Below, in pieces: positions 39,755-57,741 of a stretch of 64,000 bases of DNA (positions are counted from its first letter, which is position 1; each line of letters begins with the position of its first letter). The translations under genes and the position numbers were made by a program. The stretch comes from a virus (Duplodnaviria; Caudoviricetes). The notes under the pieces are model-generated. The model was not told the DNA's origin and did no database searches. It saw only the letters and a list, made by a program, of their open reading frames with translations. The stretch covers positions 28,325 to 92,324 of IMG/VR virus record IMGVR_UViG_3300010340_001609. One strand, given 5' to 3'.

Positions 39755-40927
39755 TTAACCTATTTCCAGTTCAGTTTCGTCGTGATTTTTCCTCATATAA
39801 TCATAAGCATCTGAAAGTGATCCTAGATTTTTATAAAATGCTGAAAGACCATATTTGTTCAAAGAAACTTCTCCACACATGATCATATCTTTGTCAATTT
39901 GTTTTGTACTTAAAACAGTTTTTATTTGTGGAACACTCCATATTTTTAAATTTTTATCACTGAAGTTTTCTCCGTTTACTACCAATTCCAAATATGGCTT
40001 ATTTGCTTTTGAAACTTTTTCAGTTATTTTTCTAACAATAAACCAAACAGCAGCTTTGACCTCCGCTTCTGGATTTTCCAGAAAATCTGGTGTTTCAATT
40101 TTGTCAATTGAAATTAGATCCATTTCTTTTATCACTTGTGAATACTCCTCATCTAAAATTAGACTAATGTCCACGCTTCCAGCCAATTCCATCCAAAAAC
40201 TTATTTTTTGAGCTTTAGTCCAATCTGGTGAATTTATAATTTCTTGTTCTTTGGTAAGCGCCTCTATTAATGGTTTGATTTCATTATTTTTCTTTCTGTT
40301 CATCGTTTTTTTAATTTCATCAAATGGTTCAATAATAACATTATAAAGTTGTTTATAGTTTTTATATTTCTTGTTTTGTCCAACGATGTGCAAACTGTCT
40401 AACGCTTCTAGGCAAACTAAGTTTGTTAAACTTTTTTTATTAAATTTAGAGTGTCTTTTTGTCCCATCTGGATTGACGAATAAGTCTTCAATTGAAGAAT
40501 AAGGTTTATATTGTTGAATTTCTTCAAGTGCAGCATTTCCAATTCCAGAAATTGTGGTCAACCCTGGAACTATAGTTTTTTCTTCTTTAGGGTGCATTTC
40601 ATAACCTGCCCCAGAAAAATTAATATCTGGTTTTGAAAACTTATAACCTAATTTTTGAGCCTCTCTCATTGCCACTGTTTTTGGATCTTCTTGTCCTACA
40701 ACTTTCCCTTTTTCTAAGGCGGCATAATCTAAAGCAGAAGTTATCCATTCATCTGGGTAATATTTTAGCAAATAAGCGCATTGATATGTTGCTATCGAAT
40801 ATGAAATCGCGTGAGAATTTGAAGTTAATAATCCATTTTCAAGATAAAATTGATGATCTTCATGTTCCACTTCTAAATCGTATGTTTGTTCTTCTCCTAG
40901 ATATTCAAATGACACTACTTTTGGCAT
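39755..40927 (-). CDS. dnaE: DnaE fragment 5 of 5: IntC4 (37 aa) plus C-terminal extein (353 aa; fingers end, HhH, OB)
   Basis: TYDLEV...HQFYLENGLLTSN|SHAISYS..YQCAYLLKYYP, PDINFS, GLTTISGIG HhH motif. Confidence 0.92.
   Translation of the reverse strand: MPKVVSFEYLGEEQTYDLEVEHEDHQFYLENGLLTSNSHAISYSIATYQCAYLLKYYPDEWITSALDYAALEKGKVVGQEDPKTVAMREAQKLGYKFSKPDINFSGAGYEMHPKEEKTIVPGLTTISGIGNAALEEIQQYKPYSSIEDLFVNPDGTKRHSKFNKKSLTNLVCLEALDSLHIVGQNKKYKNYKQLYNVIIEPFDEIKKTMNRKKNNEIKPLIEALTKEQEIINSPDWTKAQKISFWMELAGSVDISLILDEEYSQVIKEMDLISIDKIETPDFLENPEAEVKAAVWFIVRKITEKVSKANKPYLELVVNGENFSDKNLKIWSVPQIKTVLSTKQIDKDMIMCGEVSLNKYGLSAFYKNLGSLSDAYDYMRKNHDETELEIG
40817..40927 (-). mobile_element. Split intein 4, C-half
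   Basis: Blocks F/G: YDLEV...HQFYLENGLLTSN; +1 residue is Ser. Confidence 0.9.
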
Positions 40928-41897
40928 ATTTTTCTCCTATGAATATTAAACCTGTCTTTATTTCATTTATTTGAGCATTAATATGCTGCTCTAATTCATC
41001 CATATATTTCTTTTTAAGTTTTGTTTTTTTATAATTTAATACATCATATGAAAGTCTTATTATTAAGAATTTTTCCTTTAAATAAGAATTAAATTCCTTA
41101 TCTTTATTTTGAATTTTTTCTAATATTTCTTTATTAAAGAATCTAAAATGTAAGATTCCGTCATATTCAATTATTAATTTTAAATCATTACATTTAATGT
41201 CTATTTGTCTCCATTTTGTTTTAGTAGTAAAATTTATATTATGTTCAAACTGATTTCTTTTAAATTTTAGTTTAGAATATTTGTTCTTAAGATGATTAAA
41301 AAGGATTTCTTCTCCTTTACTTTTAAAGGAAACATTTTTACAAAGTTTAATAATACATTTTTTAAAAAAAAGATTTGGGTTTTCTTTTCTCCATTTTTCA
41401 AGTCGTTTGCTTCTTTGTATTAAAATTTCAGGTCTACTTGATGTTTTTATCGCAGTTTTAGACGATAATTCTACATTGTTTTCTCTAAATTTTGGATCTT
41501 TCCAAAGATTTGACAATAATATTGACCTTCTTTTTCTTTCATTTTGATTATTTAATATATTTTTGGAAACGTTAAATTTCATTTTAGAAATTTTTTCTTC
41601 ATATAAAGAAGGATTTTCTCTTTTATATTTTGTAACCCAATTTTCTCTTCCTTTTTGAGCAGCAGATCTTTTTTCAAAAGAATTTGAAGTTTTTTGTATT
41701 AAAAATTTTTCATTTGGATGATTTGAATTATAATGATTTTTTAATTCTCTAAAATTAAGTTTACATATATCACATTTTAGATAATCTTTACCTTCAATTC
41801 CTATAAGGATAATACAATCTTTTCTATGCTTAACTTTTTTACAAAAAGTACATCGAGGTGTACGTTTTTGAGCTTTTTTTATTATTTTATTAGTCAT
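40905..41897 (-). CDS. Free-standing endonuclease (Vsr/DUF559-like PD-(D/E)XK with Zn fingers) between IntN4 and IntC4; putative homing endonuclease
   Basis: CxxC..H..C and CxxC...H...H at the N-terminus; SKGEE.LF...QF...IDI...LIIEYDG.LH...KD. Confidence 0.75.
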   Translation of the reverse strand: MTNKIIKKAQKRTPRCTFCKKVKHRKDCIILIGIEGKDYLKCDICKLNFRELKNHYNSNHPNEKFLIQKTSNSFEKRSAAQKGRENWVTKYKRENPSLYEEKISKMKFNVSKNILNNQNERKRRSILLSNLWKDPKFRENNVELSSKTAIKTSSRPEILIQRSKRLEKWRKENPNLFFKKCIIKLCKNVSFKSKGEEILFNHLKNKYSKLKFKRNQFEHNINFTTKTKWRQIDIKCNDLKLIIEYDGILHFRFFNKEILEKIQNKDKEFNSYLKEKFLIIRLSYDVLNYKKTKLKKKYMDELEQHINAQINEIKTGLIFIGEKYAKSSVI

Positions 41898-42192
41898 TAA
41901 CTATTTCCAGATTTTCTTTTATTATTTGTTTTATAGGTAACATTCGTCCATCTTTCACTCTAAATTTATGGTCCATAGAACATATTACTTCAACTCCATT
42001 ATCTAGTAAAAATTTAAAAACAGGTATTTTTCCGTGATTATGAAGTTTTTTTACTTTTACAAAAATAGTTTGTTTTGTTTTTTCATCTCTTGATTTAACA
42101 AATTCATTTGACTGAATCTTTTCAATCGTTTTAGTTGTTTTATATATTCCGTTTTTATTATAAATTGGAATTTTAGTGTCTGATTTCAAACT
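41890..42192 (-). mobile_element. Split intein 4, N-half
   Basis: Block A SLKSDTKI (Ser nucleophile); block B ICSMDHKF. Confidence 0.85.
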
Positions 42193-43149
42193 TGCATTGA
42201 ACGAGTATGCGACCAAAGCCTCCATTTTATCAAAAAATGCGGCAGATTTTGCACTGTCAATATTTGCGAATTTTTTTGTTTTATCCACAAACTCTTGTTT
42301 GAGTTTTTCCCTTTCTTTTGCAGCTTTCTCTTTATTACTTGTTTCCTTTTTCGTGAAGGCTTTTCGAACGGAGTCTGTCTCATCCAGCGGCATTCCACAA
42401 AGTTTTGCATAGATCAACTGTAATTGTTCCTGAAATATTAAAAGACCACTTGTGGGTTTCAAGACATCTTCAAGTAATGGATGTTCATACTGGATTTTAT
42501 CTGGGTTCGCTCTGTTATTTAAGAATAACTTATCCACTTTTAATCCCAGCGGTCCTGGGCGGTGTATTGAGGTCGCTATTGCAATATCTCTAATTGAGAC
42601 TGGTTTCATTTTTCTCATAAACTCTTGAGTATTTGGTTTTACAAATTGAAATATTGAAAAGAAATTTCCATTCCAAAAAACATGTTTATAGACTTCTATG
42701 TCGTCAAAATTGTTATTATCTGGTGATAGATGTTTTTGAAACCACTCATTAATTTGTTCAAAACTCGGCTCTTTTATTCCGTGATATTTAATCAGAATTT
42801 TTCTAACTGTGTTTTCAAACATTCTAAGAGTTCCGAGTGCCAAAAAGTCAAATTTTAAAAACCCAAAGTGTTCTAACATTCTGAAGTTAACTCCTTCCGT
42901 CCAAGGAGTTTGAAGACTTCTTTTTTCATTCTTGCCGCCTATTATCAGTGGCATATTCTCTTTTTCCAAGGGCGAGTCCGTCAACACCACGCCGCCCGCG
43001 TGCCGCCCGCAATTTGAAATTAATCCAGCTTCCGTTAAAAGGTTCGGTTGATTGTCGATAAACACACTCGGAGAGACGTTGTGATGAAGGTCATAGACTT
43101 TGTGTTTTCCGTCGAGTTTTTTTATTGATATGATTTTTCGGTTATTCAT
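41890..43149 (-). CDS. dnaE: DnaE fragment 4 of 5: IntC3 (46 aa) plus extein (273 aa) plus IntN4 (100 aa)
   Basis: GLISN|CGRHAGGVV, FLKFDFLALGTL (third catalytic Asp), IFQF, HRPGP, IFQEQL, YSFNA|SLKSDTKI...CSMDHKF. Confidence 0.93.
   Translation of the reverse strand: MNNRKIISIKKLDGKHKVYDLHHNVSPSVFIDNQPNLLTEAGLISNCGRHAGGVVLTDSPLEKENMPLIIGGKNEKRSLQTPWTEGVNFRMLEHFGFLKFDFLALGTLRMFENTVRKILIKYHGIKEPSFEQINEWFQKHLSPDNNNFDDIEVYKHVFWNGNFFSIFQFVKPNTQEFMRKMKPVSIRDIAIATSIHRPGPLGLKVDKLFLNNRANPDKIQYEHPLLEDVLKPTSGLLIFQEQLQLIYAKLCGMPLDETDSVRKAFTKKETSNKEKAAKEREKLKQEFVDKTKKFANIDSAKSAAFFDKMEALVAYSFNASLKSDTKIPIYNKNGIYKTTKTIEKIQSNEFVKSRDEKTKQTIFVKVKKLHNHGKIPVFKFLLDNGVEVICSMDHKFRVKDGRMLPIKQIIKENLEIVND
43012..43149 (-). 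mobile_element. Split intein 3, C-half
   Basis: KIISIKK...KVYDL...AGLISN; +1 residue is Cys. Confidence 0.85.
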
Positions 43150-43600
43150 ATTTTCTTTTTATTTTTCTTTCTAAGAAGTTTATATCAAACGTTTGCGTAT
43201 TATTTTTTCTTAAAAAAATACTTATTTCCTGTTCATTCACAAATTTTTTAAGCTCAACATCATAAAGCAAATTTGATATTATACAGATGTTTGAATTTAA
43301 CAATAATGTTTTTTCATCTTCATATTTTTTTATTTTAAATAAAAAAGTACTTCTTTCTTTTAAAGAAGAAGAGCATAACCATAACATGGTTTTCAAAAAA
43401 TTGTATTCAAAACCTGAATTGTAAATTGAAAGATTTATAACTGGGTATTTGTCTGCAAATTCATTTAAAAGAATTTCATTGGAACAAGAAAAATTAGAGT
43501 TATCTACGACTGAGGAATAATTCAAATTAATCAAATTTTCAAAAAAGAGTAAACGTTCAAATATATGAGTTGAGTAGTTTTCTAACTTCATCACATCCAT
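43142..43600 (-). CDS. Hypothetical protein inserted between IntN3 and IntC3
   Basis: 152 aa; overlaps both flanking dnaE fragments; no motif recognised. Confidence 0.5.
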   Translation of the reverse strand: MDVMKLENYSTHIFERLLFFENLINLNYSSVVDNSNFSCSNEILLNEFADKYPVINLSIYNSGFEYNFLKTMLWLCSSSLKERSTFLFKIKKYEDEKTLLLNSNICIISNLLYDVELKKFVNEQEISIFLRKNNTQTFDINFLERKIKRKYE

Positions 43601-43872
43601 CCAATCAAACTATCATCTGATGACAAATCAATTACTTTTTTCCATCCTTTATCTGTTTGCACTAAATGGTCTTCTGTTAATTTAATAGTCTTACCATCAC
43701 TCATAGTAATCTCATATAGTTCTTTTTCACCATTTTCTATTTTAAAATAATCTGAATTAAACTGCAATTCACCAGTAGTATCAACAAACGCAATTTTATC
43801 AACATCTTCTTTTATGTTTTTAAATGCTTTCCAACCATTGTTTGTCATAATAATGGTATCCTCCGTAAAACA
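43591..43872 (-). mobile_element. Split intein 3, N-half
   Basis: Block A CFTEDTIIMTNNGWK; block B IKLTEDHLV..DKGWK. Confidence 0.9.
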
Positions 43873-44268
43873 AGACTTAATTTGTTTAAATAAGATTTTT
43901 AGGCTTGATTCAAGTTGTGGATATTCTTCTAATAATTCATTAAACGTCGGAGAATTTTTCTCCGCACTTTCATATGAAAGAAACCAGACGCCTCTATCGA
44001 AACCATCTTGTTGCTTGTCTGCTGCCAATGTTTCCTTTTCTATCTGTTGGGTTACAGGATTTATAAGTTCAAATGGTATTTGATAGAGTCTTGCCAAATC
44101 TTTAATTAAAGATTTTAGCTGTAACTGGTTATAGTTTGAAACTGGCAAAACTGATTCTTCGCCAAAATGCTCAGTCAATATCTTAATGGCTTCTTCCCGA
44201 TCAGCACAATCGCTATTGTGACTAACAATCGAAAATCCACTTTCATAGAATGAATGTAGTTTTTTCAT
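43591..44268 (-). CDS. dnaE: DnaE fragment 3 of 5: IntC2 (18 aa) plus extein (114 aa) plus IntN3 (93 aa)
   Basis: SIVSHN|SDCADREEAI...FG..SV..VSNY...KSLIKDLAR...QIKS|CFTEDTII...LTEDHL. Confidence 0.92.
   Translation of the reverse strand: MKKLHSFYESGFSIVSHNSDCADREEAIKILTEHFGEESVLPVSNYNQLQLKSLIKDLARLYQIPFELINPVTQQIEKETLAADKQQDGFDRGVWFLSYESAEKNSPTFNELLEEYPQLESSLKILFKQIKSCFTEDTIIMTNNGWKAFKNIKEDVDKIAFVDTTGELQFNSDYFKIENGEKELYEITMSDGKTIKLTEDHLVQTDKGWKKVIDLSSDDSLIGWM
44215..44268 (-). mobile_element. Split intein 2, atypically short C-half
   Basis: MKKLHSFYESGFSIVSHN; +1 residue is Ser. Confidence 0.8.
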
Positions 44269-44295
44269 TTAGTATTTTCCTCATTTCCTTTTGCT

Positions 44296-44754
44296 TCATT
44301 CCAGGCAATCTTGCTGTAATCCATAATTTTTTTCTACTTTCAAAATTCCATTTTCTTCCAAAACATTAAATGGTATAATATTAAAACTTTTTGTTGATTC
44401 TATACTAATATCAACCAGTTCAACTTTTTGATTGTTTAATTTTCTTTTTTCTACTATCGAACAATTTATATGATTTGATTTAATCAAATCACCAACATTT
44501 AACGAATAAACATTTTTAATTGAAGAATTTTCAGTGAAAAATCTATGCTTACCAGTTGCAATTATACAACCATAACAATCATTGATTTTTACGAAAATTT
44601 CAAATAAATCATCAGTTTCACACGAAACTCTTTGCGAAGTAAATAAAACTCTTTCTTTTTCGTTAAAAATATTGATGATAAAATCACCTTGTTTAATGTT
44701 TTTGATTTTCTTATACCCAGTCGTTGTTGGGACTAATGTATTTGCTTCTAAACA
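44296..44754 (-). mobile_element. Split intein 2, long N-half
   Basis: Block [11 protein letters not shown]; block B IATGKHRF; also contains block-F-like [14 protein letters not shown]. Confidence 0.85.
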
Positions 44755-44979
44755 ATCAATATCTGGAAGTCCTGCCTTTTTCTTACTAAGAAATCTTTCA
44801 AATAACAATCCATGTTTTACAGGATCTACTTGAGTTATCCCAGTTGCATAACAAACCAAAGATCCTGCACCAGAATTATGTACTGGTATACCCTCTACAT
44901 TATAAGAATTCTTATTCTCAACAGAGAGATCATATACTTTTCCTTTATATTTTGAGTATGATTTATTCTTCAGTTTCAT
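44296..44979 (-). CDS. dnaE: DnaE fragment 2 of 5: IntC1 (35 aa) plus extein (40 aa) plus IntN2 (152 aa)
   Basis: VYDLSV...IPVHN|[40 protein letters not shown]|CLEANTLV...ATGKHRF. Confidence 0.93.
44875..44979 (-). mobile_element. Split intein 1, C-half
   Basis: [22 protein letters not shown]; +1 residue is Ser. Confidence 0.92.
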
Positions 44980-45271
44980 TTATTATTATTCCTAGCTTTT
45001 TTTGATTCAGCAATATTTGTCCCAAAAAAACAACTTTCCTGTCAATTCCAACAGATGCTACTATATTCATTTGTCCATAAAAAATAACATATATTATGTT
45101 ATAATATCCATCTAACAAATATTCTGTTAGTATTTCTGATGATAATACTATGTTGTCATTAATATCTGATTCATATTTTACTTTTTTCTCTAATCTTTTC
45201 TGAAAGAAGGCAAAGTCAATATGAAAATTTATTTTTTCTTTATCTTTTTCATTTTTTATTGATACAATCAT
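44963..45271 (-). CDS. Hypothetical protein
   Basis: 102-aa ORF overlapping pth2 and dnaE fragment 2. Confidence 0.45.
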
Positions 45272-45675
45272 AATAATTTTAATTCTCTTGTGAGTTCATC
45301 TATTCTAGATGCCTCATGCGGGCCTATCGCCATGCAGGTTCTAGTAGACACTCCATTAAATTCAGTCAAGCCTGAATCTGTTATTAAATGAGTGACTAAT
45401 CCTTTAGATTTGGCATTTTCAAAAAGTAAAAGAAGTTCATCTTCTGAATTTACATAAACACAAATTTTGCGTTGACCTGTATTAATCCAATTTAATTCCT
45501 CTTCTGAATATTCAAAATTTTTTGTTTTTATTTTTTCAAGTAAAAAAGCAATACTTGCGTGCGCAATTTGAGCTGCTATTTTACCCTTTCTTACATTTAA
45601 ATCTTTACGCCAAATTAGCACTTGTTTTACGTTTATATCATTCATGATTTCATAATTAAAATTATGAATATACAC
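45268..45675 (-). CDS. pth2: Peptidyl-tRNA hydrolase, Pth2 type
   Basis: KQVLIWRKDL..RKGKIAAQIAHAS, DSGLTEF, TCMAIGP, IDELT..LKLL; likely start at 45645. Confidence 0.92.
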   Translation of the reverse strand: MYIHNFNYEIMNDINVKQVLIWRKDLNVRKGKIAAQIAHASIAFLLEKIKTKNFEYSEEELNWINTGQRKICVYVNSEDELLLLFENAKSKGLVTHLITDSGLTEFNGVSTRTCMAIGPHEASRIDELTRELKLL

Positions 45676-46989
45676 TTTGAAATATATTTTGAAAATTTAA
45701 AAATTAAATTGAAAAAAGAATTTGATTCCGAATCAATAAAACTGTTCGAAGAAGCCGTTTCTATTTGTAGAATTAAATTAAAAAAACACGGACTATATGA
45801 AACTTGGAAGCCGTATGAATATGTTTCAATTTCAAAAAATCAATCATTTTTATTTGAAGAAATTAGCAGTGAAATTCCTGCCGATGTAAATGCTGCAATG
45901 AGTTCACAAATAGCTGCCATTAAAAATTTAAGAAAATGGTTTATGTCTTTACCCGAAAAAAAGCAAACAATAATAAATTCAAAGTCTGTTGATCTTCTTA
46001 AATCAAGAAAAAATTTTTTTGCCGAACTAGAAGATTTGGAAGATGAAATTAATGGAATATATGGAAAATTACAAAAAGGTGGTTTTTTTAGTAAGTTAGC
46101 AAAAAAAGGGTTTGGTTTTTTTCAACGTGGAATGAGTAGTCTTGGAGCTGGTGAAGTTACAAATACTAATATAGATGAAAAACTTTCTGGTGCATTGTTA
46201 TCAACAAACAGCGAACTGTTTAGTCAAGTACGTGATGCAATTTCAAATATTGTAGCAGATGAAAAAAGAAACTTGATTGGAAGGGAAATGGTAAATCAAC
46301 TTTCAAGAAGATTTAATGTCAATCCACATGATATTGCAAATGCAGCTCACTCAATTGGAGTGAATGTTCAAGGTACATTAGGAACAGTTTCTTCTCCTCA
46401 AAATGTTGCTGCTGCGGCAACTGTTGCTAATCAACCAACCACCGCAGCAACCGCGGTTGGATCTAAATTAGGAATGCCATTAATGGCAAAAATGGGAATC
46501 GGTGCGGGTGTTTTTGCTTTGGTTGCCGCAGGCGCCGCTGGTATGAAAATGAGAAGTAGAAGAAAACGCATAGAAAATTTGCAAAAAGTCGCAAAATTAT
46601 TCGGAGCTAAAAATGACATTATCACAAATGTTGTGGTTGACAATAATATTGAAAATTTAAAAAATCAAAATCAATTAGGTTCTGGAGTTATTTCATCTAA
46701 AGAATTGCCGTCGGGAGAAACACCTAAACAGTTAATGCCAGGGGATGATTATTTAAATTCAAAAACGAATACCAACCTTCTAAATCCACCACCATCAAAC
46801 AAAGAAGAAGCTAAAAAATTTCTTCAATTGGATCCAACAACAGAAGATCACTTAGCAATAAAAAAAGCTGAAGATACAATACAAAAAATAAGAGACAACC
46901 AAGTTAAACTTCATAAACTTGAAACTAATGTAATACTTGCCAGAAAACATTTAATCAATGAAATTAAATTAAAGAAAATTATATTTTAA
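45622..46989 (+). CDS. Putative internal virion protein with a hydrophobic Ala/Gly segment
   Basis: Likely start at 45664 after TAATTA; LFEE motifs; MGIGAGVFALVAAGAAG followed by a basic cluster. Confidence 0.5.
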   Translation: MFYVYIIHDFIIKIMNIHFEIYFENLKIKLKKEFDSESIKLFEEAVSICRIKLKKHGLYETWKPYEYVSISKNQSFLFEEISSEIPADVNAAMSSQIAAIKNLRKWFMSLPEKKQTIINSKSVDLLKSRKNFFAELEDLEDEINGIYGKLQKGGFFSKLAKKGFGFFQRGMSSLGAGEVTNTNIDEKLSGALLSTNSELFSQVRDAISNIVADEKRNLIGREMVNQLSRRFNVNPHDIANAAHSIGVNVQGTLGTVSSPQNVAAAATVANQPTTAATAVGSKLGMPLMAKMGIGAGVFALVAAGAAGMKMRSRRKRIENLQKVAKLFGAKNDIITNVVVDNNIENLKNQNQLGSGVISSKELPSGETPKQLMPGDDYLNSKTNTNLLNPPPSNKEEAKKFLQLDPTTEDHLAIKKAEDTIQKIRDNQVKLHKLETNVILARKHLINEIKLKKIIF

Positions 46990-46992
46990 TAA

Positions 46993-47415
46993 TCACATAA
47001 AGATACCAGTTATTTTTTTATAATCTATTTCAACATTAGTAAATCCTTTATCGAAAACAATTGATACTTCAAAAAGTGATTTGTTTTTAATAAATTCTAA
47101 TTGATAAAATTCTTCGCAAGGAAAAATTTCATATAAAGATTTATAAAAAGAATATCTCCGATAAATTTCTTTTTCGTTTAAAACTTGATAACAATGATTT
47201 ATGGAAAAAAGTGCTTGTTCATATTGGTCAATTTCAATTCGTATTGAATATTTTATATCGGATAACAAAATAAAATTTTGTTTTTTAATAAAAGCAATGT
47301 TTTTTTCAGATTCATAATCTTGAAAGAAAGAAAAATTTTTTTTATACATATTATCCACAAGTGATAATACTTTTTTTAAAAATTCTTCTTCTTCGAAGCT
47401 TTTAATGCTATTCAT
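46993..47415 (-). CDS. Hypothetical protein
   Basis: 140-aa ORF overlapping the thyA stop. Confidence 0.45.
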   Translation of the reverse strand: MNSIKSFEEEEFLKKVLSLVDNMYKKNFSFFQDYESEKNIAFIKKQNFILLSDIKYSIRIEIDQYEQALFSINHCYQVLNEKEIYRRYSFYKSLYEIFPCEEFYQLEFIKNKSLFEVSIVFDKGFTNVEIDYKKITGIFM

Positions 47416-49582: not shown

Positions 49583-49917
49583 TCTTCCATTCCAGGAATT
49601 ATAATTTGTTCCTGAATTCCATTCTGATCAATATATTTCAAAACTTGGCAAGTTGAATATCCTAGATGCGGCTCTTTCAAAAGAACTATATATTCATTTA
49701 AATCAAGTTTATTTTGATTAGAATACCAAATACGGTATCCATTTAACCACCAGGATTTTTTGCCATTTTTCCAAATAACCGCTGGTCCATCTTCTCGATG
49801 CCACTTTCCGTTTTTAAGCCACAATTCATCCCCATTCTCCCATTCAATAATTCCTGTATAGTGTTTTGGAACATCCTCCCAATGTTTCACTTTTATCGTT
49901 TTCATTCTATAAACCAC
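49567..49917 (-). CDS. HREDGP-motif protein, tandem copy C
   Basis: Paralog of copy A. Confidence 0.75.
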   Translation of the reverse strand: MVYRMKTIKVKHWEDVPKHYTGIIEWENGDELWLKNGKWHREDGPAVIWKNGKKSWWLNGYRIWYSNQNKLDLNEYIVLLKEPHLGYSTCQVLKYIDQNGIQEQIIIPGMEEWIIE

Positions 49918-50240
49918 TCTTCCATCCCAGGAATCACAATTTGTTCTTGAATTCCATATTCATCAATATATTTGAATAGTTGACAAGCTACATACAATGG
50001 ATGTGGTTCTTTCGAAAGAATTATTCTATTTCTTAAATCTAATTTATCCCAACTAGAATTCCAAATATATTTTCCATCTAACCACCATTCTTTCTCTCCG
50101 TTATAATAAATAAATGATGGTCCATCTTCTCGATGCCGTTTTCCATTTTTATACCACCATTTTGAACCACTTAAGAATTCAACAATTCCTGTATAATTGC
50201 TTGGAATTTCATAACCCGTGTTTGCTTTTATTGTATTCAT
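49902..50240 (-). CDS. HREDGP-motif protein, tandem copy D
   Basis: Paralog of copy A. Confidence 0.75.
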   Translation of the reverse strand: MNTIKANTGYEIPSNYTGIVEFLSGSKWWYKNGKRHREDGPSFIYYNGEKEWWLDGKYIWNSSWDKLDLRNRIILSKEPHPLYVACQLFKYIDEYGIQEQIVIPGMEEWFIE

Positions 50241-50816
50241 TTACACAATTTCTTTTTTTATATTATATTTTTTCAGCACATATCTTTCATAAAAGATATT
50301 TTCTTTGCTGTTATCATTTTTAAAATATGATTTTTCATCTAATAAAGAAACTTTTTCCTCTTGAAACCATTGATTTGAGTCAATTAAAGATTTGGGTGAA
50401 AAATCTATTTTTTTATCAAAAACATTGACTTTTTTCTGGTTGATTGTTTCAGATAATTCTGAAAAATAAATCTCATCAACCAATGAAAATAGCTGTCTAT
50501 AAATTTCTGATCCACCTATAATAAAAATTTTATTATTAACTGAATAAATGATTTCTTTGTTTTGCTCTTTCCATTCATCAACTGATGAAAATATTTTGAT
50601 TCCTTCTTTTTGAGCTAAAGTTTTTGAAATAACATGATTGATTCTATTAGGAAGAGGTTTTCCAATTGATTCGAAAGTTTTTCTTCCCATTACAATCATG
50701 TTATTACTCGTCAAAGTTTTGAACCACTTTAGATCAGAAGGAAGAAACCAAGAAAGGGCATTATCGTTTCCGATATGCCCTTCTTTAGTTGCTGCGACAA
50801 TTAACGCTACCGTCAT
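50241..50816 (-). CDS. folA: Dihydrofolate reductase
   Basis: LIVAA....IG.DNAL.W.LPSDLKWFK..T, VMGRKTFESIGKPLPNRINHVIS, FIIGGSEIY. Confidence 0.95.
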   Translation of the reverse strand: MTVALIVAATKEGHIGNDNALSWFLPSDLKWFKTLTSNNMIVMGRKTFESIGKPLPNRINHVISKTLAQKEGIKIFSSVDEWKEQNKEIIYSVNNKIFIIGGSEIYRQLFSLVDEIYFSELSETINQKKVNVFDKKIDFSPKSLIDSNQWFQEEKVSLLDEKSYFKNDNSKENIFYERYVLKKYNIKKEIV

Positions 50817-50827
50817 AGTAGCATATG

Positions 50828-52540
50828 TTACTTCTGATTTTTCGTGCTGTCAAGTGTCAAGCGAGCGATTACAGACATTACAAACACGTTGCCCAAGGTC
50901 CAAACTAGCATAGGAAACCAGCCGAAAGGAAAGGCGTGCAAACCACTCAAGAAAGTGCCTAGCAGAAATGCTGAAGTTCCGAGTGTAAAGCCGCCAATGG
51001 GTGCTCTTAGAGCTTTATTGGAATAGAATGTTCCAATCAAGACAAGAGGCAGAAAAGCGCTTCCAAGTGGAAGAAACTGATGAATGAATGTATTTGTAAA
51101 GAATGTCAATTCTCCTGGCGGGACAGTTAGAATTTTAGGCAACGAGAATGGCAGCCACATTGTTAGAATACTAAGACCAAAAGTCGCATACATTGCTGGG
51201 AATAGCCAGCGTTTTTGATCTTCTACTTTGCCGCCTTTTTTGGCAATGGCGGCCATTATAAGTGCTGTCATTAACATAAATGAAAACCCTCTCCAAAGGG
51301 ATTTTTTCATCTCAATTTTTGAAACAGCATTTTTTGCTGAAACAACTCCAGCACCATAAAGTTCTGGACTTCTGTCTCTATGTTCTGGCACTTCCGCAGA
51401 TGATCTTAAAATAGATTCAACTGCGGAAGGATCTGTCACTCCCATAGAAACAATCAACGCAGCAACTCCTGCAACGTGTGGCGCAGCCATTGAAGTTCCG
51501 CTCCACGCAACAAATTGTTCACAGCCATTTCTGCCTCTGTCACAAATAGTTTGTTGAGGAATATTGACACCAGGGGCCGCAATTGCAATTTCAGTTCCTC
51601 TAGAGCTAAATTCTGCAATTACATCCCCTGGTCCAATTGCACTAACTGCAAAAGATCCAGGTTCATTTGCAGGCGATTCTACTCTGTGTCCATTGTTTCC
51701 CGCAGCGCAGATAACAACAGAACCTCTCGCCCTCGCATAAGCTACAGCTTCCGCCATAATTGGGTTTCTAGGCCCTCCACCAAGAGAAAGGTTAATTACA
51801 TTTGCACCGTTATCGGCAGCAAACCTAATTCCTTCCGCAACATCGGCCAAAGTACCAGAACCTCTGGAATCCAGCACTTTAACAGGAATAATTGTAGAAC
51901 AATGTGCAATCCCCGCAAACCCAACGCCGTTATTTGTTGCTTGCGCAATTGTTCCAGCAACATGACTTCCATGACCTTGATCGTCGGATGCTCTATTCGT
52001 ATCATTAACAAAGTTCCATCCTTCGACACAATTTGTCGTGTTAAGATCGGAAAGTCTTTGGAAGTTTCCGTGTGTCTCGCACGCAACACCAGTATCAACC
52101 ACAGCTACTCTAACATTTCTTCCGCAAGTTTGGTTCCATGCTTGTTCTACGCCAATTCGACGTAGGCCCCATTGTTCTGAAAATCTAGGATCATTTGGAG
52201 TCCAAAACATTCTCATAACATGATTTTGTTCCGCCCCCTGTACGTTTGATTCGTTGCGAATACGCGAAATAATGCTGTTTCCAGCATTTGCTTCCGCTCT
52301 AAATAAATAAATTCTATCTGAATTTACCATTTGTGGGCTATTTGCCTGTAGATTGATTCCATAGCGCTGAGAAACTTCCCTGATTGAAGTTTCTGATGCC
52401 GAATCCTGAAAATCGACAACAAATTCCTGTTCAGAACTTGATTGTCCAGATTCATCATTAAATGTTGCGTGTTGCGCAGCCGCGGCACTCGGAAACAACG
52501 CAGAAACGAGAAGTACAGAGAGACTAGTTAGCTTTTTCAT
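50828..52540 (-). CDS. Subtilisin-like S8 serine protease with signal peptide, prodomain and C-terminal membrane domain
   Basis: VAVVDTG (Asp), GHGSHVAGTI (His), SGTSMAAPHVAG (Ser); several C-terminal TM helices; visibly higher GC than flanks. Confidence 0.93.
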   Translation of the reverse strand: MKKLTSLSVLLVSALFPSAAAAQHATFNDESGQSSSEQEFVVDFQDSASETSIREVSQRYGINLQANSPQMVNSDRIYLFRAEANAGNSIISRIRNESNVQGAEQNHVMRMFWTPNDPRFSEQWGLRRIGVEQAWNQTCGRNVRVAVVDTGVACETHGNFQRLSDLNTTNCVEGWNFVNDTNRASDDQGHGSHVAGTIAQATNNGVGFAGIAHCSTIIPVKVLDSRGSGTLADVAEGIRFAADNGANVINLSLGGGPRNPIMAEAVAYARARGSVVICAAGNNGHRVESPANEPGSFAVSAIGPGDVIAEFSSRGTEIAIAAPGVNIPQQTICDRGRNGCEQFVAWSGTSMAAPHVAGVAALIVSMGVTDPSAVESILRSSAEVPEHRDRSPELYGAGVVSAKNAVSKIEMKKSLWRGFSFMLMTALIMAAIAKKGGKVEDQKRWLFPAMYATFGLSILTMWLPFSLPKILTVPPGELTFFTNTFIHQFLPLGSAFLPLVLIGTFYSNKALRAPIGGFTLGTSAFLLGTFLSGLHAFPFGWFPMLVWTLGNVFVMSVIARLTLDSTKNQK

Positions 52541-52585
52541 TTTTCTTCTTTCGTTGTGGTTTATTGCAGTCGTTCAGTCCACCCC

Positions 52586-52613
52586 ATGATAAGCACCGCG
52601 AGCGCGGCGTCAA
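52586..52613 (-). promoter_or_regulatory. Sigma70-type promoter with GC-rich spacer, upstream of the S8 protease
   Basis: TTGACG-ccgcgctcgcggtgct-TATCAT. Confidence 0.65.
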
Positions 52614-52659
52614 CCGCAAATTCTTAAATCTCATCACACATTGTTAATGTGCGCAGGTC

Positions 52660-52896
52660 TTATACATGTTTTTCATATTGAAAAACATTTTTTATAAATG
52701 CATGGAAGTATTTTCCCTTGGATTCTGAATTTTTAAATTCAAACCAAGTTTCTTCTGATACTCCTTTATATTCATAAACCGAACCATTTGTTTTAAATTG
52801 TAACTTTAATCTATGGTACAAAGGGTTATATTCAGCTTTTAAAAGTAACTTACTACTTTCAGTATCGAATTGTTCTGTTGTTAGTGTATCTATCAT
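52660..52896 (-). CDS. KTSC-domain protein
   Basis: SS.L....YNP....L.LQFK.NGSVYEY.GV....W..F..SESKGKYF...IK. Confidence 0.85.
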   Translation of the reverse strand: MIDTLTTEQFDTESSKLLLKAEYNPLYHRLKLQFKTNGSVYEYKGVSEETWFEFKNSESKGKYFHAFIKNVFQYEKHV

Positions 52897-52929
52897 TTTT
52901 TATTAATCTCTTTTAACTATTTTTTTCTC

Positions 52930-53361
52930 TTAGATTTTGTTTATTACAACTTTAGACATTGGAAGATATCTTCCAGAAAAAACTCTTTTTACATGCTTTA
53001 TTTGTTTACTATCAACAAAATAAAAATTAAAATTTTGATGTTTTAGTGAATCTGCTAAAACTTTCTCCTTTTTATACAAATTTTTTTCTTCAAGAACAAG
53101 AAGAAGAGTTAAATCACTCTGTTTGGTATTTTTTGAAAAAAAATTTTTATTCGACGGAAGAGGAATTAAATTTTTATATTTTTGTCCAAATTTCTTAATA
53201 GAATTTTTTATTTTTCTATTCATTTTTGCTACTTCAACAAAGTACAATCCTTGTTTATAAAATGTGTTTATATTAACTTTAATTGATGTTTTTTCAAAAA
53301 TAAGAGAATTATAATTGATTAATAAATGATAATAAAAAGTAACTAAATCTGATTTATTCAT
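52930..53361 (-). CDS. Hypothetical basic protein
   Basis: 143-aa ORF. Confidence 0.45.
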   Translation of the reverse strand: MNKSDLVTFYYHLLINYNSLIFEKTSIKVNINTFYKQGLYFVEVAKMNRKIKNSIKKFGQKYKNLIPLPSNKNFFSKNTKQSDLTLLLVLEEKNLYKKEKVLADSLKHQNFNFYFVDSKQIKHVKRVFSGRYLPMSKVVINKI

Positions 53362-53386
53362 TTTAAACCACTTGTTTCAAATGCAC

Positions 53387-53416
53387 AAAAACCCATAAAG
53401 AATATCTTTATGGGTT
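53387..53416 (-). terminator. Intrinsic-terminator-like hairpin
   Basis: AACCCATAAAGA-ATA-TCTTTATGGGTT 12-bp stem with a short T tract on the minus strand; second hairpin TATTGTCT-AATA-AGACAATA at 53422-53441. Confidence 0.6.
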
Positions 53417-53451
53417 CGATTTATTGTCTAATAAGACAATAGACTATTGTG

Positions 53452-53880
53452 TCAAACTCTTTTTGAGTTCATTGCTTTTACATAAGTTGTAAAAAATGAA
53501 CCCGCCGATTTACGGCGACGCCATGACATAGCCATTTCTTTAGTGAAGCCTTCGTAGAGATATCTATCACCGTTTTTGAAAACTACGGTCATATTACCCA
53601 TGACAGGATTGCTTTTATTTGTGGCTACCCAACGGAAACTTTTAATAAAAGTGCTTTCTTCAAATTTGTGTTCAATTGTAAACAATGCGTTGTGCGCAAC
53701 TTTTGTAGTTGTATTTTTTGTTGAAGGTGTTGTTCTCTTTAACTTTGGATGAATTTTTGATCCAATTGTTTTATTAGTAGTAGTTGTTGATGATGATTTT
53801 GACATTTTTCTTGTTGATGATTTTTTCGTAGTCATTTTTCTTGTGTTTGTGTTTGTTTTTGTCTTTGTCATGGCACACAT
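53452..53880 (-). CDS. KTSC-like domain protein with Lys/Thr-rich N-terminal tail
   Basis: ESTFI.....MTVVFKNGDRYLYEG......W....SAGSFFTTYVK; likely leaderless start at 53871. Confidence 0.65.
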   Translation of the reverse strand: MCAMTKTKTNTNTRKMTTKKSSTRKMSKSSSTTTTNKTIGSKIHPKLKRTTPSTKNTTTKVAHNALFTIEHKFEESTFIKSFRWVATNKSNPVMGNMTVVFKNGDRYLYEGFTKEMAMSWRRRKSAGSFFTTYVKAMNSKRV

Positions 53881-53906
53881 TATAAGGCGCCGTGAGCGGC
53901 CGTCAA
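53879..53906 (-). promoter_or_regulatory. Sigma70-type promoter with GC-rich spacer
   Basis: TTGACG-gccgctcacggcgcct-TATAAT, with ATG 7 nt downstream. Confidence 0.7.
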
Positions 53907-53923
53907 CCCCTCGCGACTAATTT

Positions 53924-54157
53924 TCAATCCTCGTTGTGTTTGACTTTATATTGAATAAAGTGTTGTTGTACAACTTTTAATTCATCAAAAGTTAATCCAA
54001 TAGAATCTTGTTGACCACTAACATTTATAAAAAAAACTTCAGAATATCTTTGCCTGTCGTATCCATGATCGTCAAACAAAACAACGGTTCTTGCTCTTAT
54101 GACAAGATCTTTTTTTTCTCCTAAAGTTTCTTCACGAATTATCTTCTGCTTTAACAT
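53924..54157 (-). CDS. Hypothetical protein
   Basis: 77-aa ORF. Confidence 0.45.
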   Translation of the reverse strand: MLKQKIIREETLGEKKDLVIRARTVVLFDDHGYDRQRYSEVFFINVSGQQDSIGLTFDELKVVQQHFIQYKVKHNED

Positions 54158-54497
54158 TAATTTGTTCCTCTTGTTTTTTTTCTTCTAATTCATCTAGAAT
54201 AGCTTTAATTCCTAAAAATGTATATCCATTACAATCAAGATATGCATCTAATCTACCTTCTTCTGGTGGCAATAAACTACTATTTGCTATTCTACTTAGT
54301 TTATCTAAAACTCTAACAATAAACATTAAATCTGAATATTGTTCTGGAACAACGCCATCTGGAAAAAGAAGTTTAAGATGTTCTGATGTTTTATTGAAAG
54401 AATTTCCATATGCTTTATTTTTCTTTTCTAGTAATTCAGCCTGTGTCGTTGCAATTTCTAAAAATGTTTTACCCATAAACAAATGATAAACACACAT
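54132..54497 (-). CDS. DUF1599-like / nucleotide-modification-associated all-alpha protein
   Basis: LLEKKNKAYGNSF...RVLDKLSRIAN...DAYLDCNGY. Confidence 0.6.
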   Translation of the reverse strand: MCVYHLFMGKTFLEIATTQAELLEKKNKAYGNSFNKTSEHLKLLFPDGVVPEQYSDLMFIVRVLDKLSRIANSSLLPPEEGRLDAYLDCNGYTFLGIKAILDELEEKKQEEQINVKAEDNS

Positions 54498-54518
54498 AAT
54501 ACATTGCGCAATAGAAAA

Positions 54519-54785
54519 CTATTCTTTTTCTACTGGGAGATTTATATATACAACAACGATCGTATATTTGCCACGCATTGATTGCGAAGATTTCAAGTAA
54601 TTCATCACTGAAATTTCAGCCGCCTCCCAAGAATCAAATAATGGATCTGTTTTTCCATCTATTGTTACAGATTCAAAAAATTCATTTACAATCCGAAATT
54701 TTTTATGGGGCACGAGTTTAAAATCATGAGAACTAATTTTTCTTGGGGATAAATCATTTCTCTGCCCCGTTTTTTTATTTTTCAT
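54519..54785 (-). CDS. Hypothetical protein
   Basis: 88-aa ORF. Confidence 0.4.
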   Translation of the reverse strand: MKNKKTGQRNDLSPRKISSHDFKLVPHKKFRIVNEFFESVTIDGKTDPLFDSWEAAEISVMNYLKSSQSMRGKYTIVVVYINLPVEKE

Positions 54786-55179
54786 TAAATTCCTTTAAGT
54801 TTATTTTAATAGAAGGAATTCCTTTTAAAAATTTTTTATTTTCCAAATATTCTTGAAACCCAGAAAAAACATAAAAAATTTCCTTGGTAACTTTGTTTTG
54901 ATACATTATTGTTGGAAAATAAAAATTGATTATATCTTTTTCATCTTTATATTTTCCCATATCAACAATCTTATATTGAGTTTTGAAAAATTTCCTTACA
55001 GTTCTCCTTGTAATGATTTTAACAGGCTCTAATTCTTTTATTTCATTTTCTGTAAGTGAAACGGCATTAAAATAACATCGTTCATCATATTCATCTTGAA
55101 TTATTTCAAAAAACATGAAATACGTTGTTGTTTTGCCCACTTTTGTTATACAATTCTTTAAAAGTTTTCTTGTGAGCAT
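54775..55179 (-). CDS. Hypothetical protein
   Basis: 134-aa ORF with AAGGTG RBS-like site. Confidence 0.45.
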   Translation of the reverse strand: MLTRKLLKNCITKVGKTTTYFMFFEIIQDEYDERCYFNAVSLTENEIKELEPVKIITRRTVRKFFKTQYKIVDMGKYKDEKDIINFYFPTIMYQNKVTKEIFYVFSGFQEYLENKKFLKGIPSIKINLKEFNEK

Positions 55180-55205
55180 TGTCCACCTTATTAATAAGTA
55201 TATGA

Positions 55206-55520
55206 TTATTCTTTTGAGTCAGTTTGCATTATAGCAATAATATGCTTTATTAACTTTTGTGGATCTGTTATTAACTCTTTATTTGTTTCTATTGAAACAG
55301 AAATCAAACTTGTTAAGGCTTCAATTTCAAAATAAATATTTTTAAATGATAAAGTTGTCATTATTACCACAAATATATTTTCTAACACATCATCAGATTT
55401 AGAATTTTCGATCGAGGAAAATTGATTTAATTCATCAATTTTTGAATTTAAAAATTCAATTTGTAATTCAGTAAGATCATCATAAATACCTTCGTTTTCT
55501 AGTGCGATTTTATTTATCAT
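55206..55520 (-). CDS. Hypothetical acidic protein
   Basis: 104-aa ORF with AAGG upstream. Confidence 0.45.
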   Translation of the reverse strand: MINKIALENEGIYDDLTELQIEFLNSKIDELNQFSSIENSKSDDVLENIFVVIMTTLSFKNIYFEIEALTSLISVSIETNKELITDPQKLIKHIIAIMQTDSKE

Positions 55521-55530
55521 TTTTACCTTT

Positions 55531-55878
55531 TCATATTGGGATTACATTTGCTTTTACTAAGGAAATTATTTCTCTTAAAATTTCTGTATTTGTGTATTTT
55601 CTATCTGTTATAGATTCAACGAGTTTTAATATTTCATTAATGTCAGGTATATTTCCAATAATTTTAATAGTCATGATTATAGCGTTTTCCAAAGATGACC
55701 ATTCAATTTTCTTTTTGGATACCCAGGCACTATATTTAAAATTATGGATTTTTAAACAGTTTTTACTACAACAGGAAACATTTGCAGATCTATCAAGAAA
55801 TTTTTGTTCATCTGAAGGTATAAAAAGATACCCGCAATTAGCACAAAAAATTTGATAAAAAATCATTATGGTACCCAA
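55531..55878 (-). CDS. Small zinc-finger protein
   Basis: CANCG...CCSKNC. Confidence 0.5.
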   Translation of the reverse strand: MGTIMIFYQIFCANCGYLFIPSDEQKFLDRSANVSCCSKNCLKIHNFKYSAWVSKKKIEWSSLENAIIMTIKIIGNIPDINEILKLVESITDRKYTNTEILREIISLVKANVIPI

Positions 55879-55896
55879 TATTAGATATGTTGTAAG

Positions 55897-56178
55897 TCAA
55901 TTACTTACTTTTTCAAAATCATCAAATTCTGATAATTCTTCTGCGGCAACCCAACCCCTATTTTTTGTTAAGAATTTATGATCTTTTGTACAAGAAATTT
56001 TCGTACCGTCTTCAAATTCAAGATTAATAATTTCTTCATCTACTTCATAATCCCATAATTCAAGAACTTGCTGAATACTTCCATCATGAGTATAAACATA
56101 ATCTTCTGTTTTTATATCTTTAATTGCTACATATCGATTTTTTTCTGGTCTATGAATTTTTGTCTCTGGCAGAAAACA
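55897..56178 (-). mobile_element. Split intein 1, N-half
   Basis: Block A CFLPETKI; block B ISCTKDHKFL; ends at a stop with no block F/G. Confidence 0.92.
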
Positions 56179-57741
56179 GCCGCGGCCTGCACCAAGTAAC
56201 ATTTTTTTTCCAATTAATGCTAGACTTTGAGAACATGTCAAAAAATATCTTGATAATTTTAAGTGTCTAATAACATCCAATTCTTCCATTGCTCTGTCAA
56301 CATAGACTGAATCATTCAATTTTCCTTTAGATTCTAAACCTTTTATGGTTAAATCTACAAGTTCATTAAAACTTATCTCTTCTTCAGATAAGCCAGTGTT
56401 TTTTAATTCTTCTAATTTGTTTTTGTCTAAGAGTTTAGCTAAACTAGGAAGTTTTGGAGATTTATCAAATGTTATTTTTTCATTTATACTACTATGGGCA
56501 ATATCATGTGTTCTTTCAATCGCGTCGCAAACAAGATCATGATATTCTTCATTATAAATTAATGGATATTCTTTAATACAATAATTTTCATATGCAGACC
56601 ACATTTGGTCTGCATTTTTTGGATATAATTCACAGTCTAATTCGGAAATTTTTTGGGGAATAATAGAAGGGTCAATTTCCTTAATTTTTTCTGATGTCAT
56701 TTTAGACATTATTTTATAAATTATTCTTTCCTTCCAGTGATCAGGATTTGGATAGTGACAATCCGCAGAAGCAATTAATTTTACACCAGTTTTTTTAGAT
56801 AACTCAATTAAATGATAATTTAAAATATGCTGATATGGGAGTTTGTTAAACTGCAATTCTAAAAAGAAATTGTCTTTACCATGTAAAGCATCCACAAACT
56901 TATCAGTTAAATTTTTCAATTCTTCTTGAATTATATCGAATTTATAATTTTTTAATATTTGAATTGAATCTGAATAGTCTGAACTGTCAATTTGTAATTC
57001 ACTATAATGTTTAATAAGAATTTTATTGTGCAAATTTCCTAAACAAGCGCTACTCCCTATAATATTTCCATTAGAATTTGCTTTTAGCATATCAAAATCA
57101 ATTCTTGGAAAATAATAAAAGCCATCTTTATAAGAAAGAGATGTAAGTTTAAATAAACTTTGAAGCCCCTTCGTATTTTTAGCAAGTAAAACAAGATGAC
57201 TTCTTGATCTTAATGGATCTTGCTGTTTATAAGATTTCGTCTCTTCTTCATTTTCAACAACAGTGGTTTCTTCATTTCCCTCTTTTGAGGGATCTAAAAT
57301 TAGGACAGTGTTGTCAATATGTTCTTGTATTTCATTTAATCGAGATTCTTCTATAGGATCTTGAATAAGAAGAATATTTTTATCAGTTTTATCAACTTTA
57401 GTTTTTGCCGCTTTTTTTAACTTTTTCTTTTCTTCTTTTTCTAATTCTTTTGCTTGTTTTAACTGTTCCCACTCTTTTAAACTGGGGACAAAATAGGATT
57501 CAATTCCATAGATGGGTTTGAATTTATTCCCGCTCTTTTCTAATGCCTCTGCATACTTGTATGCGTGTGAAAACGTATTCATGTTTCCATGATCTGTGAT
57601 TGCGTGAGCATCTAGACCATTTTCTTCCGCAAACTTAAAATGGTCTGGCGGAAGCCCAATTGCATCTCCTATACTACCATTAGAGTGCGCATGAAGATTT
57701 ACATATTTCTTAGGTTTTTTCATTTTATTTTTAATCCACAA
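55897..57741 (-). CDS. dnaE: DnaE fragment 1 of 5: PHP domain and palm start (about 515-521 aa) plus IntN1 (93 aa)
   Basis: NLHAHS, AITDHGNM, GIESY, HLVLLAKN..G, GFYYFPRID, SACLG, ADCHY, LGAGRG|CFLPETKI...CTKDHKFLT.NRGW. Confidence 0.94.
   Translation of the reverse strand: MWIKNKMKKPKKYVNLHAHSNGSIGDAIGLPPDHFKFAEENGLDAHAITDHGNMNTFSHAYKYAEALEKSGNKFKPIYGIESYFVPSLKEWEQLKQAKELEKEEKKKLKKAAKTKVDKTDKNILLIQDPIEESRLNEIQEHIDNTVLILDPSKEGNEETTVVENEEETKSYKQQDPLRSRSHLVLLAKNTKGLQSLFKLTSLSYKDGFYYFPRIDFDMLKANSNGNIIGSSACLGNLHNKILIKHYSELQIDSSDYSDSIQILKNYKFDIIQEELKNLTDKFVDALHGKDNFFLELQFNKLPYQHILNYHLIELSKKTGVKLIASADCHYPNPDHWKERIIYKIMSKMTSEKIKEIDPSIIPQKISELDCELYPKNADQMWSAYENYCIKEYPLIYNEEYHDLVCDAIERTHDIAHSSINEKITFDKSPKLPSLAKLLDKNKLEELKNTGLSEEEISFNELVDLTIKGLESKGKLNDSVYVDRAMEELDVIRHLKLSRYFLTCSQSLALIGKKMLLGAGRGCFLPETKIHRPEKNRYVAIKDIKTEDYVYTHDGSIQQVLELWDYEVDEEIINLEFEDGTKISCTKDHKFLTKNRGWVAAEELSEFDDFEKVSN

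Follow-up and report, generated by a model that had tools for sequence, protein, structure and literature searches.

The split intein of cyanobacterial DnaE (Ssp and Npu DnaE) was reportedly described by Wu et al. in 1998. Fractured genes of environmental phages, together with a Vsr-like class of endonucleases and a gene-breaking model, were presented by Dassa, London, Stoddard, Schueler-Furman, and Pietrokovski (Dassa et al. 2009; PMC2677866); three DnaE loci from GOS each carried one split intein along with an endonuclease, and one of them, DnaE-1, also held the C-part of an additional intein (PMC2677866). As cited in PMC2874743, Trichodesmium erythraeum has a dnaE gene with multiple inteins (Liu and Yang 2003) and a ribonucleotide reductase (RNR) with four (Liu et al. 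2003). Here, we describe a dnaE gene located in a stretch of 64,000 nucleotides, referred to as the window, which makes up the final 64 kb of an IMG/VR virus record of 92,324 bp (IMGVR_UViG_3300010340_001609, positions 28,325 to 92,324). CheckV puts the completeness of this record at 25%, and the complete genome is therefore probably several hundred kilobases long. The locus encodes a DnaE-type polymerase in five genes, accompanied by four different, apparently intact split inteins through which the pieces are most likely joined after translation into a 149-kDa enzyme, and we hold with considerable confidence that this DnaE is assembled from five chains via four class-1 split inteins by protein trans-splicing.

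A first-pass annotation had put forward, from the letters of the sequence, a dnaE gene broken into five open reading frames (ORFs) by four split inteins, and ORF listing and translation confirmed this arrangement, with all five ORFs on the minus strand. The junctions it had quoted, GAGRG/SGAGSLV, LPDID/SDCAD, QIKS/CGRHAGG and YSFNA/SHAISY (the slash marks the junction), are exact, and the halves of an N-intein and a C-intein with their catalytic residues flank every one of them. Piece 1 (55897-57741) combines an extein of 521 amino acids (aa) at 56179-57741, comprising the PHP domain and the start of the palm, with the 93-aa N-terminal half of intein 1 (IntN1, 55900-56178); it matches the Pfam families PHP (E 3.9e-25) and Intein_splicing (E 5.8e-8), and in the PDB it matches chains of Pol III alpha and of the Ssp DnaE intein. 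Piece 2 (44296-44979) opens with the 35-aa C-terminal half of intein 1 (IntC1, 44875-44979, ending in VHN), followed by an extein of 40 aa (44755-44874, SGAGSLV...LPDID) and by the 152-aa IntN2 (44299-44754). In piece 3 (43591-44268) the 18-aa IntC2 (44215-44268, ending in SHN) precedes an extein of 114 aa (43873-44214, SDCAD...KQIKS) and the 93-aa IntN3 (43594-43872). Piece 4 (41890-43149) consists of the 46-aa IntC3 (43012-43149, ending in ISN), an extein of 273 aa with the fingers (42193-43011, CGRHAGG...YSFNA), and the 100-aa IntN4 (41893-42192). Piece 5 (39755-40927), finally, carries the 37-aa IntC4 (40817-40927, ending in TSN) and the C-terminal extein of 353 aa (39758-40816, SHAISY...) with a HhH domain. 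The extein lengths of 521, 40, 114, 273, and 353 aa given earlier are thus borne out, and their sum amounts to 1,301 aa or 149.2 kDa. Sites 2, 3, and 4 fall within 5.2 kb of the minus strand, and the two halves of site 1 are 11 kb apart.

Over the five pieces the Pfam domains follow in order, with PHP on piece 1, DNA_pol3_finger on piece 4, and HHH_6 on piece 5, and the DNA_pol3_alpha profile is covered consecutively by the pieces (profile positions 3-65, 56-105, 111-170, and 205-260). In a comparison of the joined exteins with every ORF from 80 related IMG/VR loci, the stretch between residues 5 and 1283 (approximate bounds) proved 44-48% identical to single ORFs without interruption, 1,214-1,257 aa in length (loci L008, L009, L010, L012, L013, and L017). 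Relative to these intact DnaE ORFs the joined exteins have neither missing nor surplus segments, such that the concatenation proposed as a check in the first-pass annotation gave a product collinear from end to end with intact phage DnaE. Each junction motif is found uninterrupted in a protein cluster of relatives: GAGRGSGAGSLV in P0112 for junction 1, PDIDSDF in P0027 for junction 2, KQIKSTGKHAGG in P0055 for junction 3, and YSFNASHAFSY in P0008 for junction 4. The 40-aa extein of piece 2 aligns to residues 364-403 of E. coli alpha and 426-465 of Taq alpha, which places PDID at E. coli 400-403 and Taq 462-465. Its two aspartates, which we take to be the catalytic D401/D403 of E. coli and D463/D465 of Taq, both reside on piece 2 because the extein aligns through E. 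coli 403 and Taq 465; the original description had put junction 2 between the two aspartates of the PDxDxD motif, and this was slightly off, as the junction directly follows the second one. The third catalytic aspartate, in the KFD motif, is invariant (D55 in the alignment of relatives) and lies on piece 4, where it had been placed from the start. With two aspartates on piece 2 and the third on piece 4, the full triad is therefore present on no single piece.

It could be argued that the breaks are an artefact of assembly or sequencing error, of stop codon readthrough under another genetic code, or of joining at the RNA level, in line with the fact that pieces 2 and 3, as well as pieces 3 and 4, share a reading frame. 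Pieces 2 and 3 are, however, separated by three in-frame stops (TGA, TGA, TAA), and a ribosome-binding site (GAGGA) is located nine bases before the new ATG, while whole genes in other frames intervene in the gaps between pieces 1 and 2, 3 and 4, and 4 and 5, and the long ORFs are clean under translation table 11. An alternative genetic code with readthrough from piece 2 into piece 3 was rejected in view of three stops of two kinds; RNA introns at the breaks were likewise rejected, since an Rfam search of positions 39000-58500 returned no group I or group II intron and no family of any kind. Furthermore, the same breaks recur in independent metagenome assemblies (loci L005, L006, and L092, clusters P0002, P0003, and P0106-P0111), among them L005 from another metagenome with a piece 4 extein 93% identical to that of the window, L006 on a record of 172 kb, and L092, a Logan contig of 121,694 bp. 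The architecture of piece 4 is common to clusters P0002, P0003, P0022, and P0043, and that of piece 2 to clusters P0106-P0111. An artefact thus has next to no probability in our judgement, and the five genes are to be taken as separate.

In comparisons with two relatives, G001 and G002, the nonsynonymous divergence dN lies at 0.04-0.26 for exteins and at 0.07-0.32 for intein halves (IntN1, IntN3, IntN4, IntC1, and IntC3), with a synonymous divergence dS ranging from 0.34 to more than 2.7 or saturated. Since dN is far below dS in both, the polymerase segments and the inteins alike are not decaying and stand under purifying selection. This bears directly on the proposal that the fragments represent a decaying, nonfunctional polymerase gene and that another polymerase replicates the phage, for which the incomplete genome leaves room, as does a small PolA-like ORF in these two relatives. 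Whereas no PolB or PolA matches were obtained in the 92-kb record, G001 (L090, 1417-2448, minus strand) and G002 (L091) encode an ORF of 343 aa in which motifs A, B, and C are PolA-like (...IIDFRALEPS..., ...KLSVLKILYG..., ...VIHDALVF...). Located about 12 kb upstream of piece 1, this ORF adjoins gp32-like and RecA-like genes, and the equivalent position in the phage of the window lies beyond the end of the contig. It scores 24.8 bits versus the Pfam cut-off of 34.3 bits, has no exonuclease domain, and with just 343 aa is too small for a full replicase. Moreover, none of the five pieces has a frameshift or an internal stop, and the multi-piece layout is kept across relatives at 68-93% extein identity, so that decay of the fragments appears very improbable compared with a maintained DnaE in five pieces.

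The residues expected of splicing inteins are in place throughout. Residue 1 of inteins 1 to 4 is Cys (CFLPETKI in IntN1), Cys, Cys, and Ser (SLKSDTKI in IntN4), block B reads TKDH, TGKH, TEDH, and SMDH, with Ser for Thr in intein 4, and the C-terminal junctions VHN/S, SHN/S, ISN/C, and TSN/S provide a terminal Asn in all four inteins and Ser, Ser, Cys, and Ser as the +1 residues. Alignments of relatives at 40-67% identity show no variation at these catalytic positions, including C76 and H145 in the IntN2 alignment as well as S16, H17, and N18 in the relatives of IntC2. The Pfam families Intein_splicing, Hint, and PT-HINT match pieces 1 to 3, PF14890 matches at all sites in a scan of the genome, and PDB matches to the Ssp and Npu DnaE inteins cover IntN1, IntN4, and IntC4. 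Alternatively, the five proteins might assemble non-covalently into a multi-subunit polymerase, with the intein halves acting as docking clasps and some or all junctions left unspliced; split phage enzymes working without splicing are known, for example Aeh1 NrdA (cited in PMC2677866), and the arrangement with an 18-aa IntC2 is unusual. A mere clasp, on the other hand, would not need Cys1 or Ser1, the TxxH motif, the terminal Asn, and the +1 nucleophile, all of which are kept in the four inteins and across their relatives, and an appendage of 170 residues beside the catalytic aspartate at junction 2 would be hard to tolerate in an active site. Non-covalent assembly is thus unlikely, although less so than decay, and covalent joining of the five exteins remains the preferred interpretation.

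Intein 2 deserves separate consideration with regard to its short C-terminal half. IntN2 covers positions 1-133 of the 137 positions of the PT-HINT profile and contains a block-F-like strand followed by a conserved tail (...KSFNIIPF...), with F199 and P203 invariant. An IntC2 of the same 18-aa type (M...LHS...SHN before S/C-D, where the slash separates alternative residues) opens the downstream piece in clusters P0024, P0026, P0040, P0046, and P0055, whose exteins share 55-61% identity with those of the window, and because the same short C-half occurs in relatives at this distance, the sequences argue for an established lineage rather than a recent accident. At the same site a contiguous intein of 140 aa is present in L005, and the intein is absent from L006. 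Prediction of the complex of IntN2 and IntC2 gave an ipSAE of 0.81 versus 0.01 for the best control, a mark that 58 of 80 solved complexes and 2 of 110 mismatched pairs attained; at least 71% of contacts are common to the runs, the partner pLDDT is at least 58, and residues 197-209 of piece 2 make contact with residues 4-8 and 13-16 of piece 3. The predicted docking of IntC2 onto IntN2 is supported by this score, which may partly reflect likeness to known structures because solved split-intein complexes exist. Automatic alignment of the contiguous site 2 intein of L005 with the sum of IntN2 and IntC2 is ambiguous in the C-terminal third, and the exact structural position of the break hence rests on the reading of the motifs together with the complex model. 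The natural inteins with an atypical split named in PMC11766414 and PMC3620165, AceL-TerL and GOS-TerL, have N-halves of just 25-37 aa, and C-proximal S11 splits are treated there as engineered. Intein 2 resembles these atypical split inteins in that one half is near complete and the other very short, and its break is close to the C-terminal end, as in the engineered S11 sites. Unlike AceL-TerL and GOS-TerL, its short half is the C-half (18 aa), the N-half carries an extra conserved strand, and the split is kept in several lineages.

Intein 4 differs in character. Its halves align with those of the Npu DnaE intein, IntN4 with the N-half (E 4.7e-8) and IntC4 with the C-half (E 3.6e-5), and these alignments identify intein 4 as a homologue of the cyanobacterial split intein. 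The insertion site of the latter we take to be Y/CFNKSH (native exteins AEY/CFN), with Cys1 and Cys+1 as nucleophiles. In contrast, intein 4 is inserted four residues downstream, at YSFNA/SH, and has Ser1 and Ser+1; it therefore shares neither the Y/CFNK site nor the Cys1/Cys+1 pair of the cyanobacterial insertion-site allele (insertion point a). Its homology connects the best-known split intein with a phage reservoir.

The following sequence of events can be proposed. The dnaE gene would be broken at four intein insertion sites and five precursor proteins translated separately, pieces 2 to 5 from one tightly packed, probably co-transcribed row of genes and piece 1 from a gene 11 kb upstream; every IntN would pair with its own IntC, and four class-1 trans-splicing reactions would ligate the exteins into one polymerase of 1,301 aa (149 kDa). 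No terminator-like sites were found on the minus strand inside 39755-44979, which is weakly informative, and promoter-like sites occur at chance level (98 observed versus 96 expected). Because the four inteins are mutually diverged, with pairwise identities of their N-halves of at most 34% over partial alignments, splicing might proceed in any order without cross-reaction. Orthogonality would be needed, since pieces 2 to 4 with their layout of IntC, extein, and IntN would cyclise on cross-reaction. The net charges follow a pattern of their own: inteins 1 and 3 have acidic N-halves and basic C-halves (N1 -10/C1 +4 and N3 -8/C3 +2), intein 2 is near neutral (N2 -1/C2 +1), and the polarity is inverted in intein 4 (N4 +9/C4 -8). 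Such divergence and charge pattern are what mutually orthogonal pairs are expected to look like, and we infer orthogonality from these sequence features. We give even odds to efficient splicing by all four pairs together with mutual orthogonality in vivo, in which case the locus would be a natural one-pot ligation system for five protein fragments. The 18-aa C-half of intein 2, which is split near its C-terminal end, could then serve as a synthetic peptide tag, and the four pairs would also comprise a relative of the ultrafast Npu DnaE intein that has Ser1 and Ser+1 and the opposite charge polarity. With piece 1 placed in a different transcription unit, the phage might also be able to control when active polymerase appears.

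Several points weigh against this interpretation. Collinearity, catalytic residues, selection, and shared breaks support the trans-splicing of five chains as first suggested, yet splicing itself is something we infer from these features, and the same applies to the role of the spliced DnaE as the replicase on which phage replication would depend. Inteins 3 and 4 have no penultimate His, a residue that the active Npu DnaE intein likewise lacks. With two intein halves flanking an extein of only 40 aa, any cross-reaction of the pairs could lead to unwanted products, for example by cyclisation. For the split site of intein 2 no experimentally characterised natural counterpart was found in the literature searched. 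DnaE, finally, may not be the sole polymerase, since the record is 25% complete and the position held by the PolA-like ORF in G001 and G002 is beyond the contig.

The relatives display the layouts with one, two, or three splits that the first-pass annotation had proposed to look for. Next to the six loci named above with the intact gene in a single ORF, two pieces are found in L014 and L015, split at site 1, and in L016, split at a further site, 1.5 (KKK/C...THN/S-LPDID); the C-half belonging to site 1.5 is also present in L011, whose contig starts just upstream of the ORF and leaves the upstream part off the contig. The two pieces of L007, a more distant relative, are split in the PHP/palm region, and within 5624-7675 (plus strand) a large contiguous intein resides in its PHP domain, with LAGLIDADG-like motifs (...FKAIPG/CLLKG...FVLHN/CEAYF...); the split intein of L007, near ...SSACVSG, has an N-half that starts with neither Cys nor Ser. 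Four pieces occur in L092 (85-87% identity to the window), which is split at sites 2, 3, and possibly 1 and has pieces 4 and 5 fused, without intein 4 and the ORF330 described below, and in L006, where site 1 is split, site 1.5 contiguous, site 3 split, and site 4 split by a Cys1 intein. L005 has five pieces and five inteins, split at sites 1, 1.5, 3, and 4 and contiguous at site 2. Within 6829-9365 (plus strand) of L005, the extra split intein (KKKM/C...THN/S) encloses an HNH-like ORF (7274-8209) between the halves, and just six extein residues (SLPDID) separate it from the contiguous 140-aa intein of site 2 (8322-8741). A contiguous mini-intein occupies site 4 in cluster P0068, and the intein of P0083 has yet a different position, following EAG in the FQEQ region. 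In total, inteins are inserted at eight or more sites in the DnaE family, where one and the same site may be contiguous, split, or empty, and the dnaE of the window with its four splits is one extreme of a continuum.

The content between the intein halves varies from site to site. At site 4, ORF330 (40905-41897, minus strand), whose start overlaps the end of piece 4 and whose last 23 nucleotides overlap the start of piece 5, is a candidate free-standing homing endonuclease of the Vsr-like (DUF559-type) class with an N-terminal zinc finger of the Ros/MucR type. Its own sequence gave nothing significant against Pfam, PHROG, and PDB, DUF559 reaching merely E 0.054; its family, however, comprises 174 clusters at 50% identity, and 24 of 53 aligned members match ROS_MUCR and 14 of the 53 match DUF559. 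The invariant residues D233, E244, D246, G247, H250, D266, and R281 fit a Vsr-type site. A model by AlphaFold2 with the alignment of 53 homologues attained a pLDDT of 91.5 (38 without alignment, and unusable), and its best PDB fold was E. coli Vsr (1vsr; probability 0.99, TM-score 0.56, E 0.016, for the full-length model), with I-Bth0305I (3r3p) also matched. At site 3, ORF152 (43142-43600, minus strand) overlaps its neighbours by 10 and 8 nucleotides and has no Pfam or PHROG family, no usable match in the protein atlas, and no nuclease signature; a degraded endonuclease was considered and found unsupported. It shares 17-23% identity with the ORFs in the same position of L005 and L092, where the flanking exteins share 85-93%, and is therefore fast-evolving. 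The halves of site 2 are separated by a spacer of 27 nucleotides only. Between the halves of intein 1 there is a block of 11 kb (44980-55896) with about 20 unrelated genes, among them PTH2, thymidylate synthase, DHFR, an S8 subtilase, and four tandem paralogues of 112-116 aa; G001 (11.6 kb) and G002 (about 15.8 kb) show this uncoupling as well. In the more distant L014 site 1 is compact, and its halves enclose an ORF of 318 aa whose sequence overlaps the downstream piece. Different stages in the decay of a homing element seem to be represented by the four sites, along one pathway that would run from an endonuclease gene (site 4) through an unrecognisable ORF (site 3) and a 27-nucleotide spacer (site 2) to halves 11 kb apart (site 1). 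The birth and decay of split inteins are directly readable from the relatives, in which endonuclease genes are present, degraded, or lost.

The surroundings of dnaE form a module of replication and nucleotide metabolism, comprising a DnaB-like helicase, both RNR subunits, thymidylate synthase, and DHFR, in a window with a G+C content of about 29%; the region of the DnaE pieces is read almost entirely from the minus strand. A megablast search of the INPHARED phage collection with the 18-kb region gave 0 matches. The gene of the RNR small subunit (60576-62504, minus strand, 642 aa) carries a contiguous intein of about 320 aa (...GSFE/CFDKETEL...VAFTGN/TIHTVAY), with a match to PF14890 at 61626-62132 and a Ribonuc_red_sm match in two stretches, and the genome is therefore intein-rich beyond dnaE. 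A PTH2-type peptidyl-tRNA hydrolase (45268-45675, minus strand, E 7.6e-33) is located directly upstream of piece 2 and is syntenic in L092. The four tandem paralogues (48897-50240, minus strand, 112-116 aa) share the repeat ...IEW.NGDKWWYKNGK.HREDGPA..., and the one that was tested had no Pfam family at E <= 0.001. The S8 subtilase (50828-52540, minus strand, 570 aa) has a signal-like segment at the N-terminus and a hydrophobic C-terminal third, and it may be a recent acquisition because the G+C content of the stretch around it is raised (0.377 versus about 0.29).

Searches of the open-access literature turned up no naturally occurring protein that carries three or four split inteins. The natural proteins in the literature searched have one split intein, one GOS DnaE fragment having halves of two, and four trans-splicing reactions on five chains would exceed that, with one piece contributing just 40 residues, two catalytic aspartates among them. 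For protein engineering the locus may offer four co-evolved, presumably orthogonal pairs, including one with a short IntC and one with Ser nucleophiles throughout. The dnaE of the window resembles that of cyanobacteria in that DnaE is the host protein and the halves of intein 1 are far apart; cyanobacterial DnaE, however, has one split only, whereas here there are four. Trichodesmium and the window have in common several inteins in one replication-related gene, with up to four per gene known, but the inteins of Trichodesmium are contiguous with at most one split per gene, while in the window all four are split and five polypeptides have to be joined. Along these lines, the dnaE of the window takes the fractured-gene arrangement already known (Dassa et al. 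2009) to an extreme rather than introducing a new principle, and it is the most extreme natural case in the literature searched. Site 4 matches the endonuclease-bearing form and site 2 the endonuclease-less variant exemplified by gp41-7 (PMC2677866). The intein halves are adjacent on one strand at sites 2-4, whereas those of site 1 are uncoupled by 11 kb; a free-standing homing endonuclease, the candidate ORF330, lies between the halves at site 4, but not at sites 2 and 3. The RNA hairpin reported by Dassa et al. upstream of the endonuclease start is absent at ORF330, where the 91 nucleotides around the start reach -3.6 kcal/mol (z-score +1.14 versus shuffles). Unlike the loci described by Dassa and colleagues, the gene of the window combines four split inteins and five pieces on one contig, with all stages of gene breaking side by side.

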